Source of the DNA: Naegleria gruberi
Taxonomy: Eukaryota
Assembly: GCA_000004985.1 (NCBI GenBank)
Contig: GG738854.1
Direction: 5' to 3' (one strand)
DNA: 64,000 nt
A model generated the notes under the pieces. That model worked only from the letters and a program-made list of their open reading frames with translations. It made no database searches and was not told the DNA's origin. How positions within the stretch are numbered: position 1 is the stretch's first letter; every line of letters begins with the position of its first letter. Below are positions 25,981-32,700 of the stretch, one piece after another. Both the position numbers and the translations under genes were made by a program.

Positions 25981-26841
25981 TTATTGAGATTTGATAGACT
26001 CCTTCTTTTTCTGAGTATCAACTTGCAAGAATATAGAAATAATTGTTATTATAGTATAAATGGTGAAAATTACTGGAGTTTGGTCTGGAGGAGAAACAGA
26101 CCCATCAATTACAGAATCAGCCTTCTTTGCTAAATCATCTCCGAAATAAACAATATAAGTGATAGCACCACTCAATGCCAAATAAACCAATGCAACAATC
26201 CAAAATCTAAATCTAGGTCCTCCAAATCTGAAATGTGCAACTGTTAGAGCCATAAATCCAATAATTACAGAGCTCATTTCCAACCAGTAATTTTCCCATA
26301 AAGTCCAATTTTGCCAAGTTCCATATCCAATCTTTAATGTTGTCAATGGTGGTAGAATGGACATGTCAGGTCTATGTACAAGCACATCCAAAGCCCAATG
26401 AGAAGCAACGCCCAACAATAAGATAAAATAAAGAGAAAGGAGTGATCTCTTTCCTCTTCCATGAATAAGGGTATATAAAATTGTAAAAGGAATTGTCAAA
26501 GTAAATGCTCCAGTCAAACTATGTGAAAAAGTAGCATGTGAATTGAATGGCAATGGTTTGCGACTTCTCATCAATTCAACATTGAATGTACAATACTCAG
26601 AACAAACAATAGGATATGGACAAGAATCAACATTCAAATTACAAACTAATTTACAAGAATAAGACAATACAAAATAAGCAATATCAATTACTTGTGTGCT
26701 AATCATCAACCACACGAAGGAAATATCGTTAAACAACAAGTGTATGATACCGGCTGGCCCGTAGTGTCCTAATAACATTTTTTTGAAGGTGGGATTCCGA
26801 ACATGATATTTTTGGAACATCCACATTAACACTGACGTCAT
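25981..26841 (-). CDS. Multi-pass membrane protein, possibly a membrane-bound metal-dependent hydrolase (low confidence)
   Basis: 286-aa ORF with 6-7 hydrophobic segments and a His-rich HWALDVLVH motif. Family assignment is tentative. Confidence 0.35.
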   Translation of the reverse strand: MTSVLMWMFQKYHVRNPTFKKMLLGHYGPAGIIHLLFNDISFVWLMISTQVIDIAYFVLSYSCKLVCNLNVDSCPYPIVCSEYCTFNVELMRSRKPLPFNSHATFSHSLTGAFTLTIPFTILYTLIHGRGKRSLLSLYFILLLGVASHWALDVLVHRPDMSILPPLTTLKIGYGTWQNWTLWENYWLEMSSVIIGFMALTVAHFRFGGPRFRFWIVALVYLALSGAITYIVYFGDDLAKKADSVIDGSVSPPDQTPVIFTIYTIITIISIFLQVDTQKKKESIKSQ

Positions 26842-27170
26842 TTGTTTTTGACTTTTTAAGACAGATAATATTCTACTATTCGATTTACATCATTTAATAA
26901 ATAATTCTATAGATCAATTTACAAATGTTCATCTTCCAGTGTTTTATCAATGTTATCAGAAAATAGTTACAATGCTGCAAATTCAGATCCATCTGTTCCT
27001 CAAAACTGGTTGGCTCATTGTCTTTTTCATCTTGTGGGTTTAAACAATAGAAACATTTAATTTGATATGGATAGCAACAAAATGTATTGAAATATTGGGG
27101 TTTGAACAACACCAATAAATTTGTTATCACAACTTTGGAATTCAAGCCAACATTGAAAAAAAATAGGAGC

Positions 27171-27690
27171 ATGAGCATCAACAGTAACGATAGAGGTATT
27201 TTAAAGAAGAGCAAACTTCAGGAAATTGTACAACAAATTGATCCTCGTCATTCCCTTGATCAAGAAGTGGAAGAGGTGGGTTTTTTCATATGATGATGAT
27301 GATGAGAATGTTTATATCAATATTTAAATTTAATTAATTAATTTGTGTGATAATTTTATTGTTGTGGATATCGGAACAAAGATTTTGTTGGAAATTGCTG
27401 ATGACTTTATTGAATCAGTCACTACAATGGCTTGTAATTTAGCCAAACATCGTGGTTCGGATACATTGGAAGTTAAAGATCTTCAACTCTACTTGGAAAA
27501 TACGTGGGATGTTAAAATTCCAGGCTTTACACCAAGCTCCTCTGTAGTTTCCTCATCAACAGAAGAAGCACCTAGAATTCAAAAACGACCAGCCGTACCA
27601 GAAGTACACAAACAAAGATTGGCCTTTGTCAAGAAGGCTCACGATCAAATTCAAAAGCAAAAACAAAAACAACAAGAAAAGAAGCAATAA
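27171..27690 (+). CDS. TAF12: TFIID subunit TAF12 (histone-fold), 2 exons
   Basis: Exon 1 (ATG at 27171) ends ...LDQEVEE at a GTGGGT donor near 27283. A ~100-nt intron follows. Exon 2 reads ILLEIADDFIESVTTMACNLAKHRGSDTLEVKDLQLYLENTWDVKIPGF, the conserved TAF12 histone-fold core. Confidence 0.7.
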
Positions 27691-27964: not shown

Positions 27965-29734
27965 ATGATCAAGAAGGTTGTATCGTTAAATAAAACAACA
28001 CACCAAATCAACAAAATTGTTGGCAATGCTGTTGCGAGAGGATTTCATGTAAGTCAATTCCGAAGAGAGGAGGAACATGTTGCTTCTAATACTTCATCGA
28101 ATGCAGGTGAAGCAAAGAGAGTACCAAGAAAGAAGAGATTTGCAACTCTTGCTGTTGAAGAGGAGATTAATTCTAGCACTTCAACATCCACTAGTACACC
28201 ATCAGTTCAACGAGAAGCTCAAAGATTTGAAGCATTCAGATATTCAATTCCTTGGAAAGATGCTGAATATTACAATGAAGAAAAACTCGAAAATGAAATG
28301 AGAAGAATTTTTGAAATTTGTCATGGATGTAGAAGATGTTTCAATTTGTGTGAATCATTCCCTTCACTTTTTGATATGATTGACAAGGTTGAAGTTTTGG
28401 AACAGGTACCTTCTAGTGAATTCAAAAAAATATCAGACAAGTGTACAATGTGTGATTTGTGTTACAATACCAAATGTCCTTATGTACCTCCACATGAATT
28501 TAATATCGATTTCCCTCATTTAATGTTGAGATATAGAGCTGTAGAACAAAAGAAGAAAAATGAAAGTCACACTACTCAAAATCCTCCTATTCAACTTCGT
28601 GAAACAACAGGATTCTTGACAAAGGATTCACCAAACAAGGAGTTTGAAGCTCCAGTTCATGAAGGTGTTGATAGAAAATTAACTTTGGAAAAGGAAAGTG
28701 AACTCTCTCAACAACTTCTTACAAAGATGGACAGAAATGGCTTCCTTCTTACTAGACTTCCTCAATCTATTAGCTACTTCTTGATGAACAATTCAATTAT
28801 TAGAACAATTTTGGACAAGCTTAATCTAGTTCACAAGAAGGCATATCTTCCACCATTTACCTTTGGAACACTTATGGGAAAGTTGAATTCCACAACACCA
28901 AAGAATCAATCATCCAATACTAATCAAGAAAAAGTAATCATTTATACAACATGTCTTGGAAATTACAACAAACCAGAGTTGGTTGAGTATTCTAAATATA
29001 TTTTGGAGAAAAATGGAGTTGAAGTTGCTATTGATTACAATATGTGTTGTGGAATGCCTTACTTTGAACAGGGTGACTTGGCTGCTGTGAGCAAATCCGC
29101 TGAAAAAGTTTCCGATTTCCTTGTAAATAAGTATATTAGTAAGGGATTTAAGGTTGTCACAGTTGTTCCAAGCTGTTCTCTCATGTTGAAATCTGAATGG
29201 GCCAATGTTCTTCCAGAAAATGAAAATGTCCAGAGCGTTAAAAGAAATACTATGGATATTACAGAATATTTGGTTTATTTGGCAAAGAAGAATGGTGGTA
29301 AATTACCAACGCACGACCAAATCAAGGAAATTCCATACAGTATTACTTTGCATCATGCTTGTCACGCAAGAGCTCAAAATATGGGTAATAAGGGTTTAGA
29401 TGTTTTAAAGTTTATTCCTAATGCCAAAGTTAGTGTTATTCAAAGATGCAGTGGTCATGGAGGCAGTTTTGGTACAAAGAAAGCACACTTTGATACAGCT
29501 GTAAAATTCGGTATGCCAGTTGCTAAGAAGATTTTACAAGATGCAAGCAAATCCAAAACAACTCACGTAATGAGCTCTGAATGCCCACTCGCTCAAGAAC
29601 ATTTGGCTCAAGTAACTGAAATGTCAAAGGAGGAAAAACAAGGAACTGTTTCCACTATTTCATCAAATGGAAATGATCACAACATTCAAAGCAAGCACCC
29701 AATTGAGATTTTATATGAAGCTTATCAAAAATAA
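27965..29734 (+). CDS. GlpC/GlcF-like iron-sulfur oxidoreductase subunit (two 4Fe-4S ferredoxin motifs plus CCG cysteine-rich domains) with an N-terminal mitochondrial-like presequence
   Basis: Intron-less 589-aa ORF. CHGCRRCFNLCESFP and CTMCDLCYNTKCPYVPP fit CxxCxxCxxxC(P). Downstream CCG-type motifs (NMCCGMPY, QRCSGHGG). The N-terminus is basic, amphipathic and Arg/Ser-rich with no acidic residues. Confidence 0.65.
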   Translation: MIKKVVSLNKTTHQINKIVGNAVARGFHVSQFRREEEHVASNTSSNAGEAKRVPRKKRFATLAVEEEINSSTSTSTSTPSVQREAQRFEAFRYSIPWKDAEYYNEEKLENEMRRIFEICHGCRRCFNLCESFPSLFDMIDKVEVLEQVPSSEFKKISDKCTMCDLCYNTKCPYVPPHEFNIDFPHLMLRYRAVEQKKKNESHTTQNPPIQLRETTGFLTKDSPNKEFEAPVHEGVDRKLTLEKESELSQQLLTKMDRNGFLLTRLPQSISYFLMNNSIIRTILDKLNLVHKKAYLPPFTFGTLMGKLNSTTPKNQSSNTNQEKVIIYTTCLGNYNKPELVEYSKYILEKNGVEVAIDYNMCCGMPYFEQGDLAAVSKSAEKVSDFLVNKYISKGFKVVTVVPSCSLMLKSEWANVLPENENVQSVKRNTMDITEYLVYLAKKNGGKLPTHDQIKEIPYSITLHHACHARAQNMGNKGLDVLKFIPNAKVSVIQRCSGHGGSFGTKKAHFDTAVKFGMPVAKKILQDASKSKTTHVMSSECPLAQEHLAQVTEMSKEEKQGTVSTISSNGNDHNIQSKHPIEILYEAYQK

Positions 29735-29739
29735 ATAAT

Positions 29740-32700
29740 TTATTGGTATTCGATTCTTTGTCTGAATTCTTTGATACTTTCAAATATTTCTTCGAAAGAT
29801 GGTCTCTCAGTGTCAAGAGCAGACCAGCATACCTTCATTAAACTGATATAATCAACAACTACAGAGGCAATATATGTTTTTGGATGTTTGGTCAGGATGG
29901 TATCAGTAAATTTCTCGAATGCTTTTGGATCTTCGGTATTGAAAGGTACTACTGGTCTTAAACCATTAATAACCTTTAAGGCAATGGTAAATAAGTTAAA
30001 ATCTTGATTCTCATATGGTTTACACTCAAAAAGAAGTTCATACATCATTATTGCAAATGAAAACACATCACATTTTTCAGTATATCTTTCTTCTTGAAGA
30101 CATTCTGGGGCAATAAATTCCATTGTACCACAGTGCCCAGTCATTGTTGCTTGAACGTCAGCAACTCTTGAAATACCAAAATCTCCAATCTTGGCAGTTC
30201 CCCCTCTGTTAATCAAGACGTTTTGAGGTTTGAGATCACGGTGAAGGCTAATCGATTTGTGAGTTAAAAAGAGATTGAAATTACTTACATTCCCTTATAA
30301 TGTAAATACATCATTCCTCTACAAATGTCCAACAAAATGTCCAATTTTTGCTCTATAAGGAACTTTCCTTTAAGCTTTTTAGTGTAATGATCTAGTGATC
30401 CATTTTCCATAAATTCAGTAATGATGAATTGATGTTTAAGATCTCCACTAGTACTAATACAAACTCCTATAAATGACAATACATTTGGATGTCTTAAAGA
30501 TTTAAGTAAAAATACTTCTTTTTGGAATAACTCTTGGTCTTCGGTGTACCCATCTGATAATTTCATTTTCTTGATGGCAACCTCTGTTCCCTTAAACCTT
30601 CCCTTGAAAACAATAGCAAATCCACCTTCAGATAATCTTTCTGTGAATTCCAAATCTTCAATTTTAATCATAAAGCTGTCATCATAGTCTACAGAATTTG
30701 AAATATTAAATTCACTCTTGAGAAGGGTATCTTCAAATTGCTTTTCAGCATTTTGTTTCTTGTAGAGTGCCTTTCTAGTTTTGAAAAATACAAATGTCAA
30801 AGTAAATGAGAGAATCAACAATCCCAAACCAGTTCCAAATAATGTCCATCTGAAAACGTCTTGAAATATTTCTGGATAGACAAGGTAGATAAATGTATAT
30901 GAAGAGGTAATATCTGCAACCACGAGATTGTCTCCTACTTTAGAGATTTTATAGTTGGAATTACTTGTGTCTCCTCTCTTTACTTGAACAGAGGTTTCAA
31001 CATATAAATGTTTTGCCCAGCCTCCAACTACAAGCTTACTCAGCTCACCACTACTTGAAATTGTGTAGAATACATTATTACTAGTATTTTCTGCATAAAG
31101 ACTCACATAATAGTTGTCATTAGTATAGTAATTATCAGAATCTGTTTGTGCAGAACAATTATTTTCACTTCAAAAGTTAGAATATTAATAATCTCATATA
31201 CTTACTGGGCCTTAAGAAGAACTAAAGTATTTCTATCTAATATTATCAATTTACAACCACAAGCAATTACCAAGTAATTGTGCAACCAAATGTGTCTAGT
31301 CAAATCAAAGTCACAACCTAAGAAATCATTTTTCGTATCATGGAAAGTGCTTACAACTTTGAAATCATTTTGAAAATCTCTTCCAACAAGCCTAGTACCA
31401 TTGTCATCTATTTCTAATGCAAGAAGAGTGTTATACAAAATATCTACTCCAAACATTGTACTGCTTCTACTCGAGTGTTCACCAAAGTCAAATTGGTTTC
31501 CTTCTTTCCAAGTTATTGCTTGATCTTGTACTGTTATAAATAACATTTTCACTTTTTGTAAATCTGAATTATCATTACAAACAGCTGTGACAATAAACAC
31601 ATCCTTGGTTGAGTCATATTTCATTGAATATGGAATAAAACAAGAATCTGATTCTTCATATTTTTGTGAGGCAACCAGTTTCAAAAAAGTAGAGTCAAAC
31701 TTGTAAAAGGTAAAGTTATCATCCAAAATATAATAATAATCTAATGAAATATGATAACCAATTATAGTTCTAGAACGTTGAGGAACATATAGATCATAAA
31801 CTCTCTTAAAAGTGCCATCAACAATCTGAAGAAGTGAAATGGTCTTTTGTCCAATGGCAAACAATGAATGCTTGTCATGTCCATGGTGTAATTCGCTGAC
31901 CATAAAAAGGTCATCTACTTGATATGATGTAGTAAATGGAGAGTCTTCTAAAAAAAGGTTGGTATCTCTCGATTTGGTTCTGGTGTGAACAATGCTATTC
32001 TTGAATGACCCATAGACAACGTCTGCCTGTGGCGTAGATTGTATTGAACTGTTATACCAAATGAAGGTGCATACTGTGAATATACTATTTTGGAAAGAGT
32101 TAGCACCCAGTATAACCATATTATTGCTCAACACTAAACCAGTAGCATCAGTGTAGAGCGAAGAAGTAGTTTCAAAACGCAAGAAATAATGAAGATCTCC
32201 TGCCTTAGTTAAACTTGAAGTAGAGTGAATGGTCTGAAGTCTTGAGGACCTTGAAAATTTTACTCCACTACCCAACCTTGTATCATTCAAATACTGATCT
32301 AGAATCAAATATTCCATTGGACCAACTTGGGCATCATAGGTCGCACGTTTAGCGAAAAAAATAGATAATTTTGTATCATCAAGGTCATTCAATGATGTAT
32401 AGTCAAGAAATCTTACTTCAGCTACATTCTTGCTATCAAAATTATGGGTATATGACCTGATTATATTGAATGATGTGAGGTCAATTTGATGAAATGTAGA
32501 TGAAGAGGTCAATAAAACAATGTAATCTCTTCTAATGATGTGGTATGCTGAAGAAGAAAAGACAGAGTCGAATGTTTGAGGGAGGGTTAAATTTTTGAGA
32601 GGTGTAAAATTAATCGTCAGATTTCCTCCATGACTAATCTGATAAATTCTCAATTGAGCAGAGACTTTGTAATCTGTGGTATCTATCGTTTCATACACTA

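Follow-up and report, generated by a model that had tools for sequence, protein, structure and literature searches.

The window, by which we mean the whole 64,000-nt stretch of Naegleria gruberi DNA that was analysed, carries the RFO gene as one uninterrupted ORF of 589 aa, with an in-frame TAG directly before its ATG and a TAA stop. An exact accession look-up matched the product to N. gruberi EFC47468.1/XP_002680212.1 (100% identity), whose database label is "anaerobic G3P dehydrogenase subunit C"; Table S3C of Gray 2020 (PMC7050145) lists EFC47468.1 as the N. gruberi RFO, beside the rubrerythrin (RBR) EFC50160.1 and the DUF3501 protein EFC41941.1. The ORF is not a chance one, as it has homologues at E ~1e-120 and below. 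Its features are collected in Table 1.

Table 1. Features of the N. gruberi RFO gene and its product (window coordinates)
Feature	Coordinates	Strand	Evidence
RFO ORF, N. gruberi	27965..29734	+	ORF call, 100% identity, Gray 2020 Table S3C
Predicted mitochondrial targeting presequence, aa 1-34	27965..28066	+	composition, hydrophobic moment, AF2, published predictors
Disordered, charged, Ser/Thr-rich, non-conserved linker, aa 35-90	28067..28234	+	alignment, pLDDT <50
Two ferredoxin-type Cys motifs, predicted ligands of two [4Fe-4S] clusters	28319..28477	+	motif scan
Eukaryote-specific 45-aa insertion H202-E246, conserved motif G234-V-x-R-x-L-x-L241	28568..28702	+	alignment
CCG domain 1, aa 325-409 (C330, C361-C362-G, C404)	28937..29191	+	Pfam PF02754 2.4e-9; fold match LutA/HdrB
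Second, degenerate CCG-type domain, aa 460-545 (C466, C495-S-G-H-G-G, C540)	29342..29599	+	alignment, structure model

The sequence-only reading described an intron-less gene in an intron-rich locus. This stands for the gene, which is intron-free in Naegleria, Willaertia and Andalucia alike, and for the two adjoining genes (one TAF12-like, the other a TKL kinase), both of which carry short GT-AG introns, but across the window 30 ORFs of 200 aa or more are likewise uninterrupted, the longest reaching 1340 aa. The comparison of GC content and codon usage with the other genes of the window, proposed at the same time, revealed no foreign signature. The RSCU correlation is 0.94, the third highest of the 30 window ORFs, and both GC3 and codon usage are typical of the window. 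The codon usage of the RFO gene is native and the compositional test for horizontal transfer is negative.

The protein combines two 4Fe-4S ferredoxin-type Cys motifs with two CCG-type domains (COG0247 type), and in this respect the GlpC/GlcF/LutA-type architecture recognised earlier, a ferredoxin-like 2x[4Fe-4S] part joined to CCG domains, was indeed found. The formula given for it, two CxxCxxCxxxC(P) clusters plus CCG domains, is right in outline and has to be amended in its details: motif 1 (C119-x2-C122-x2-C125-x3-C129) is followed by ESFP instead of P, motif 2 (C160-x2-C163-x2-C166-x4-C171-P) has a last spacer of 4 residues, not 3, and the second CCG domain is degenerate. The Pfam Fer4 matches are weak; in the alignment the eight Cys of both motifs are invariant in RFO, GlpC and GlcF, as are 13 of the 15 Cys examined in all. 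The second CCG-type domain is visible only by alignment and in the structure model, through the Foldseek match to LutA and HdrB, both of which have two CCG domains, and its CSGHGG is invariant in 17/17 aligned RFOs, whereas GlpC and GlcF have CCG at this place. The C-terminal half of the AF2 model matches the fold of the CCG redox modules of LutA, HdrB and EtfD (Foldseek). With 4 + 3 Cys there, against the 5 + 5 of HdrB, it is uncertain which type of cluster, and how many, the CCG-type domains of RFO hold. No transmembrane helix is predicted (maximum KD19 1.15), and a sequence search of PDB chains returned nothing meaningful, the top match (E 0.026) being an unrelated carboxypeptidase.

The mitochondrial presequence suspected from the letters alone is borne out by the composition of residues 1-34, by published predictor scores and by mass spectrometry of mitochondrial fractions. 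Seven of these residues are K/R and none is D/E, and positions 8-25 make up an amphipathic helix (muH 0.48); the AF2 model has a helix at 8-23 and elsewhere a pLDDT <50 up to residue 90. A candidate R-3 motif, R25-G-F↓H, marks a possible cleavage site, which we infer from the sequence. The published scores are 0.635 for TargetP, 0.986 for MitoProt and 0.47 for Predotar (Gray 2020, PMC7050145); those of TargetP and Predotar are only moderate. The linker that follows is missing in bacterial homologues and differs in length among Naegleria and Willaertia: ahead of the R92 column there are 91 residues in the N. gruberi RFO, 144 in N. fowleri and 132 in Willaertia, against a median of 10 in bacteria. 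The N-terminal ~90 aa are an extension added in eukaryotes, with the presequence-like segment first. When mitochondrial fractions of N. gruberi were analysed by mass spectrometry (Horváthová 2021), RFO was identified by 30 unique peptides covering 62.8% of its sequence, with enrichment toward the mitochondrial fraction; RFO, RBR and DUF3501 all appear in Supplementary Data 2 of that work, with intensities that rise toward the mitochondria-rich fraction. RFO has both a predicted N-terminal presequence and an experimental presence in mitochondria, the two marks of targeting to the mitochondrial matrix.

The bacterial affinity proposed earlier was also recovered, the closest non-eukaryotic relatives being alphaproteobacterial proteins of ~443 aa (39-43% identity over ~500 aa, E ~1e-120). 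Identity of the N. gruberi protein to RFOs amounts to 39-47%, versus 23% to E. coli GlpC and 21% to E. coli GlcF. In 81 of the 82 closest bacterial loci the gene immediately upstream, on the same strand, encodes a rubrerythrin (median gap 117 bp), and in 80 of them the gene that follows next downstream, again on the same strand, encodes a DUF3501 protein (median gap 41 bp). GlpA/B, GlcD/E and LutB/C, which the sequence-only reading had expected as partners, are not the neighbours: within 4 kb, GlpA, GlpB, GlcD, GlcE and LutB were found in none of the 82 loci, and a single locus has a LutC-like match, on the opposite strand. Upstream, 68 of the 82 loci carry an Irr-type (Irr/IrrA) Fur-family gene, a conserved neighbour that would suit a function connected with iron no less than one connected with peroxide. 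Several representatives of 518-713 aa (P0144 and P0131 among them) were scanned with Pfam for RFO-DUF3501 fusions, and the DUF3501 domain was absent. The N. gruberi RFO is orthologous to the alphaproteobacterial RFOs of Irr-RBR-RFO-DUF3501 clusters.

That flavoprotein partners are missing from the window was confirmed by tblastn of its 64,000 nt, which returned no homologue of GlpA, GlpB, GlcD, GlcE, LutB, LutC, rubrerythrin or DUF3501. A match of a bacterial DUF3501 at 30633-30791 (E 0.007) was treated as chance, because it falls inside the kinase gene and the N. gruberi DUF3501 gives no match there. The gene is nevertheless not without its partners, as the earlier account had it, since N. 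gruberi encodes both RBR and DUF3501 on other scaffolds; we obtained them from the N. gruberi sequences printed in a published supplement and by exact look-up. NgRBR (EFC50160.1, 169 aa) matches Pfam Rubrerythrin (2.8e-27) and also Pfam Ferritin, has no rubredoxin domain, and shows a median identity of 69% to the RBRs of the closest bacterial loci; NgDUF3501 (EFC41941.1) matches PF12007 (9.8e-28). The three genes lie on three separate contigs, of 1,001,995, 381,539 and 665,159 bp, and the physical linkage typical of prokaryotic members is absent in N. gruberi. They are also unlinked in Andalucia (Gray 2020, PMC7050145). Such unlinked partners are expected for nuclear genes and do not disqualify the N. 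gruberi protein as an RFO.

Of the 69 aligned sequences, 17 have the 45-aa insertion, and every named eukaryote is among them (Naegleria, Willaertia, Andalucia, Palpitomonas). It is missing in all 51 others, to which E. coli GlpC and GlcF and each of the named alphaproteobacteria belong; the Naegleria protein has it in common with its jakobid and cryptist orthologues. Gray 2020 (PMC7050145) do not, as far as we found, mention it in their main text. In a neighbour-joining tree of the family (69 sequences, 422 columns, 100 bootstraps), the N. gruberi protein falls in clades with alphaproteobacterial and eukaryotic RFOs (bootstrap 100 and 93), and E. coli GlpC lies outside the RFO clade (bootstrap 89), RFOs being apart from both GlpC and GlcF; GlpC was likewise the outgroup in Cardenas 2016 (PMC5114695). 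Heterolobosea are recovered in accordance with organismal relationships (bootstrap 100). As alphaproteobacteria nest among the eukaryotic RFOs with internal bootstraps <25, this tree does not settle eukaryote monophyly, and the eukaryote grouping rests on the common insertion and on the published maximum-likelihood tree, in which alphaproteobacterial and eukaryotic RFOs are grouped at maximal support (Gray 2020, PMC7050145). The same authors inferred RFO for the LECA mitochondrion, followed by multiple losses, and reported a patchy distribution that takes in Jakobida, Cryptista, Malawimonadidae, Hemimastigophora, Amoebozoa, Glaucophyta, the CRuMs lineages Mantamonadida and Rigifilida, and others, with RBR and DUF3501 co-occurring with RFO in the same pattern (Gray 2020, PMC7050145).

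Taken together, the ORF very probably encodes a mitochondrial RFO that has rubrerythrin and a DUF3501 protein as its working partners and goes back to the mitochondrial ancestor, its function being a predicted one. The gene would derive from the alphaproteobacterial ancestor of mitochondria by endosymbiotic gene transfer, with patchy retention in eukaryotes. Being the published N. gruberi RFO with such an inheritance, it is neither a stray G3P dehydrogenase subunit nor a recent horizontal acquisition. We give hardly any credence to the view that it is the GlpC of an anaerobic sn-glycerol-3-phosphate dehydrogenase (GlpABC), or a GlcF/LutA subunit, with its flavoprotein partners elsewhere in the genome. 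The ferredoxin-plus-two-CCG architecture and 13 Cys are common to RFO and E. coli GlpC/GlcF, and the top NCBIfam matches are GlpC models, but their equivalog cut-offs are not reached (NF008369, 154.3 bits vs 278; TIGR03379, 94.1 vs 279.9), a bacterial RFO likewise staying below the GlpC cut-off with 204 bits. The low identity to GlpC, its position outside the RFO clade and the neighbourhoods of the 82 loci, with RBR in 81 and DUF3501 in 80 in place of flavoprotein subunits, speak against it too, and in the portion of the N. gruberi mitochondrial proteome table available to us the sole 'glycerol-3-phosphate dehydrogenase' entry is RFO itself. An identity as GlcF or LutA was rejected on the same identity and neighbourhood figures, the likeness to LutA being one of fold and confined to the CCG half. 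A recent transfer from an alphaproteobacterium, specific to Naegleria or Heterolobosea, as the sequence-only reading proposed, appears extremely improbable as well. It would fit the alphaproteobacterial nearest relatives, the intron-free gene and the patchy distribution, but identity to bacteria is only ~40%, orthologues occur in many eukaryote lineages, the insertion with its motif is in all eukaryotic sequences examined and in no bacterium, RBR and DUF3501 follow the same pattern, and codon usage and GC3 are those of the window. What was found is essentially the vertically inherited eukaryotic clade that contradicts a horizontal origin.

The very patchy distribution and the weakly supported branching within eukaryotic RFOs could be read as one ancient bacterial acquisition, not from the mitochondrial ancestor and not in LECA, followed by transfers of the three genes between eukaryotes. 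This would need the repeated joint transfer of three unlinked nuclear genes, Gray 2020 (PMC7050145) favour presence in LECA with multiple losses, and the tree within Heterolobosea matches organismal relationships; we regard such a history as improbable. A different alternative accepts the RFO-RBR-DUF3501 trio as real and gives it a role in iron handling, not in peroxide detoxification: RBR might act in ferritin-like storage or oxidation of iron, with its reductive release via RFO, or the trio might protect or repair Fe-S or haem pathways. RBR belongs to the ferritin-like superfamily (Cardenas 2016, PMC5114695), in keeping with the Pfam Ferritin match of NgRBR, the regulator conserved upstream is the iron-response regulator Irr/IrrA, and Rbr of B. 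pseudomallei binds Fe, Mn and Co promiscuously (2025 study). Yet peroxidase activity has been measured for the related sulerythrin and for classical rubrerythrins (as cited in the 2025 B. pseudomallei study), B. pseudomallei Rbr is induced by oxidative stress (2025 study), and any antioxidant enzyme rich in iron would be expected to come under Irr control too. We consider a role in iron handling doubtful.

In the peroxide-reducing function that we prefer, RFO, once imported and cleaved, would carry two [4Fe-4S] clusters in its ferredoxin-like part and at least one more Fe-S centre in its two CCG-type domains. It might serve as the reductase that stands in for the missing rubredoxin domain, passing electrons to the di-iron site of RBR, which would reduce H2O2 to water. 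[quoted passage not shown] As RFO has neither a transmembrane helix nor a flavin domain, a thiol or a quinol at the membrane surface are candidate donors. DUF3501 has no recognisable cofactor fold and is probably an adaptor. One might speculate that RBR-RFO-DUF3501 is a respiratory side branch in which RFO takes electrons from the quinol or a matrix thiol pool and hands them on to rubrerythrin, or that the 45-aa insertion is an adaptation which docks RFO to a mitochondrion-specific partner, although we consider neither likely. If the side branch were real, H2O2 would be a terminal electron acceptor in the mitochondria of Naegleria and other 'bacteria-like' protists.

Papers of 2020-2021 had already described the RFO protein and both partners, together with its origin in alphaproteobacteria and its location in mitochondria, so the finding adds nothing new about the N. 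gruberi genome; the wider RFO system still matters. The name "anaerobic G3P dehydrogenase subunit C" for EFC47468.1 is misleading, and readers might mistakenly conclude from it that Naegleria mitochondria have an anaerobic G3P pathway. A corrected annotation is of practical value.

Among known systems, the closest are the RFOs of alphaproteobacteria (Cardenas 2016, PMC5114695; eukaryotic members in Gray 2020, PMC7050145), which have the same Cys pattern, CSGHGG included, and co-occur, as in N. gruberi, with an aerobic-type RBR and DUF3501; the N. gruberi RFO differs in being nuclear, in its unlinked partners, in the ~90-aa N-terminal extension and in the 45-aa insertion. E. coli GlpC represents the nearest characterised paralogue family, with the same architecture of two ferredoxin motifs and two CCG-type domains, but RFO has CSG, not CCG, as its second motif and lacks the CxxC found at the C-terminus of GlpC. 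GlcF, the Fe-S subunit of glycolate dehydrogenase, also has the full two-part architecture, at 21% identity. LutA of B. subtilis lactate utilisation (PDB 9a6l_A) is the top structural match to the CCG half (TM 0.80, target-normalised) and lacks the ferredoxin-like part that RFO has; the LutB/C and GlcD/E partners of LutA and GlcF are missing from RFO neighbourhoods, save for the one opposite-strand LutC-like match. HdrB/HdrD (PDB 5odc_B, 8rvy_b) have the two-CCG-domain fold of the C-terminal half of RFO (Foldseek E 3e-7 to 3e-5, TM ~0.6 target-normalised) at 16-17% identity; the 5 + 5 Cys of HdrB hold two non-cubane [4Fe-4S] clusters, against 4 + 3 Cys in RFO, to which we do not attribute a thiol/disulfide substrate. 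Mycobacterial EtfD (PDB 9ojn), a 742-residue chain with 10% identity to RFO, which has no predicted transmembrane helix, likewise combines Fe-S and CCG modules, and acts as an electron relay that links a soluble redox protein with another acceptor.

The protein encoded by the RFO ORF is 100% identical to N. gruberi EFC47468.1 / XP_002680212.1, with orthologues in N. fowleri (63% identity), Willaertia magna (57%), Andalucia godoyi (42%) and Palpitomonas bilix (42%). Hundreds of alphaproteobacterial relatives of ~443 aa are 40-43% identical, bearing out the bacterial affinity proposed in the sequence-only reading. The name GlpC was rejected: the two NCBIfam GlpC equivalog models score 154 bits (cut-off 278) and 94 bits (cut-off 280), and identity is 23% to E. 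coli GlpC and 21% to GlcF. The family was recognised from bacterial gene neighbourhood, the gene order in Sneathiella and in a Thalassospiraceae genome being Fur-family gene, rubrerythrin (RBR, 138 aa), RFO orthologue and DUF3501. The trio was given the name "aerobic-type rubrerythrin" system and the present component the name RFO, with the proposal that RFO takes on the electron transfer otherwise performed by a rubredoxin domain, which these rubrerythrins lack (Cardenas 2016, PMC5114695).

Features of the window, of RFO and of two bacterial loci carrying an Irr/IrrA gene
Feature	Position	Strand	Remarks
TAF12-like histone-fold gene (Pfam TFIID_20kDa)	27087-27690	+	274 bp upstream of RFO start
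RFO ORF	27965-29734	+	uninterrupted, 589 aa
Ferredoxin-type motif 1	RFO C119xxC122xxC125xxxC129
Ferredoxin-type motif 2	RFO C160xxC163xxC166xxxxC171P		spacer of 4 residues
Eukaryote-only 45-aa insertion	28568-28702; RFO aa H202-E246		conserved motif GVxRxLxL
Canonical CCG domain	RFO C330, C361-C362-G, C404		Pfam PF02754 match, 2.4e-9
Second CCG-type domain, degenerate	RFO C466, C495-S-G, C540
CSGHGG (second CCG motif)	29447-29464; RFO aa 495-500		17/17 aligned RFOs (alignment A2)
TKL-type protein kinase gene	29740-31106	-	convergent; stop codon 5 bp past RFO stop
Irr/IrrA gene, locus L001	6974-7390
Irr/IrrA gene, locus L002	6917-7333		66 more loci among L006-L085

Genomic coupling of RFO to RBR and DUF3501 is tight in bacteria. 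Among 82 loci of the closest bacterial relatives, RBR lies directly upstream on the same strand in 81 (median gap 117 bp) and DUF3501 directly downstream on the same strand in 80 (median gap 41 bp; of the two loci that differ, one runs into the end of its contig). The flavoprotein partners expected from a GlpC/GlcF/LutA-like reading are not the neighbours found, as GlpA, GlpB, GlcD, GlcE or LutB occurred within 4 kb of RFO in none of the 82 loci. The 64,000-nt window likewise held no homologue of GlpA/B, GlcD/E or LutB/C, and no RBR or DUF3501 gene. The gene had been described as lacking its partner subunits nearby; N. gruberi does possess both RBR and DUF3501, the genes lying on contigs of 1,001,995 and 381,539 bp (exact look-up) and so being unlinked to the RFO scaffold. 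Their sequences, as printed with Horváthová 2021, match Pfam Rubrerythrin (2.8e-27) and DUF3501 (9.8e-28), and the N. gruberi RBR has a median identity of 69% to those encoded at the bacterial loci. A Rickettsiales MAG (L082) is the sole case in the 82 loci where both RBR and DUF3501 are absent from the 4 kb around RFO. Alphaproteobacterial-type clusters were also seen in MAGs labelled Mycobacteriaceae, Flavobacteriaceae and Flavobacteriales (L024, L032 and L073), whose contigs are probably mis-binned.

RBR, DUF3501 and RFO have been reported to co-occur coherently in many eukaryotic lineages, with a mitochondrial prediction for all three, and the system was inferred to have been present already in the LECA mitochondrion (Gray 2020, PMC7050145, on the genome of Andalucia godoyi). 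Table S3C of that work lists N. gruberi RBR EFC50160.1, DUF3501 EFC41941.1 and RFO EFC47468.1, the window protein, which scored 0.635 in TargetP, 0.986 in MitoProt and 0.47 in Predotar. The literature already describes this RFO under the very same accession number; what keeps some interest is the misleading database name, the eukaryote-specific insertion and the proposed biochemistry of the system. [quoted passage not shown] These proteomic data, together with residues 1-34 (7 K/R, no acidic residue, amphipathic moment 0.48), back the proposed mitochondrial presequence. Bacterial RFOs start at the position of residue ~84-92 of the window protein; the ~90 preceding residues are unconserved and vary in length (91 here, 144 in N. 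fowleri and 132 in Willaertia), and the structure model shows them as disordered apart from a helix spanning 8-23. A candidate cleavage site is R25-G-F|H.

A horizontal acquisition of the gene had also been suggested as a possibility, and its lack of introns at an intron-rich locus pointed out. Both immediate neighbours do carry short GT-AG introns, between ~27293 and 27343 in the TAF12-like gene and near 30230-30270 (GTAAGT...TTAG) within the kinase domain of the TKL gene, which encodes a hydrophobic segment upstream of that domain. Intron absence is nevertheless uninformative, since the window holds 30 uninterrupted ORFs of >=200 aa (the longest of 1340 aa) and the Willaertia and Andalucia orthologues, on large nuclear contigs amid eukaryotic genes, are intron-less as well. 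Gene structure in the window (G+C ~33.6%) is eukaryotic. Composition speaks against acquisition, GC3 being 0.266 (window range 0.22-0.365) and RSCU correlating at 0.94 with the other long ORFs, third highest among 30. So does the insertion, found in all named eukaryotic RFOs (Naegleria, Willaertia, Andalucia, Palpitomonas), in two JGI metagenome sequences and in nine anonymous representatives, of which seven carry an N-terminal extension of 18-63 residues, and missing from GlpC, GlcF and 51/51 bacterial-type sequences. The model shows the insertion as coil, part of it reaching a pLDDT of ~81, and we found no mention of it in Gray 2020 (main text). Such a shared character argues for a single origin of the eukaryotic genes, in agreement with the published maximum-likelihood tree (Gray 2020), which also goes against acquisition: eukaryotic and alphaproteobacterial RFOs are grouped at maximal support, the eukaryotes together save one partial sequence. 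Our neighbour-joining tree (69 sequences, 422 columns, 100 bootstraps) placed the window protein in clades at 100 and 93 holding alphaproteobacterial and eukaryotic RFOs, with E. coli GlpC outside the RFO clade (89) and Heterolobosea recovered (100), branching within the alphaproteobacteria-plus-eukaryote clade not being resolved.

Environmental assemblies contain Naegleria-like RFO variants, P0121 (599 aa, ENA; in the 90% cluster of the window protein) and P0003 (JGI; 68% identical), and DUF3501 fragments 99% and 73% identical (P0270, P0271), indicating that related heteroloboseans in metagenomes keep the system. Elsewhere in the window, a Sneathiella DUF3501 tblastn match at 30633-30791 (-; E 0.007, 30% over 53 aa) falls inside the kinase gene and was judged a chance match, as N. 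gruberi's own DUF3501 gives none there. An ORF at 25981-26841 (-) has a sub-threshold Pfam match (24 bits, cut-off 29) to YdjM, a bacterial-type family of inner-membrane proteins.

RFO would probably relay electrons, through two predicted [4Fe-4S] clusters and whatever its cysteine-poor CCG domains bind, to the di-iron rubrerythrin, which would then reduce H2O2; for Rbr of B. pseudomallei, a preprint of 2025 still presents the operon partners as hypothetical electron donors only. An iron-handling role of the system is a less likely rival, kept in play by a conserved neighbour: in 68/82 alphaproteobacterial loci the cluster is adjoined upstream by a Fur-family gene scoring above NCBIfam cut-offs as the iron-response regulator Irr/IrrA, which hints at iron- or haem-dependent control.

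The ORF coordinates, Fe-S motifs and CCG domains had been described correctly except for small details. From the earlier interpretation, architecture, bacterial affinity and mitochondrial targeting stand, and partners and transfer do not. The start ATG is preceded by an in-frame TAG and the stop is TAA; no transmembrane helix is predicted (maximum KD19 1.15). Of the 15 cysteines, 13 are invariant when the protein is aligned with its bacterial relatives and with GlpC and GlcF of E. coli. GlpC and GlcF keep CCG where RFOs have CSGHGG, and the terminal CxxC is likewise missing from RFOs. In structure models the C-terminal half matches the CCG redox module fold of LutA (TM 0.80 normalised to target), HdrB (TM ~0.6) and also EtfD; with 7 cysteines (4 + 3) against 5 + 5 in HdrB, it falls short of the number that the two non-cubane clusters of HdrB require.
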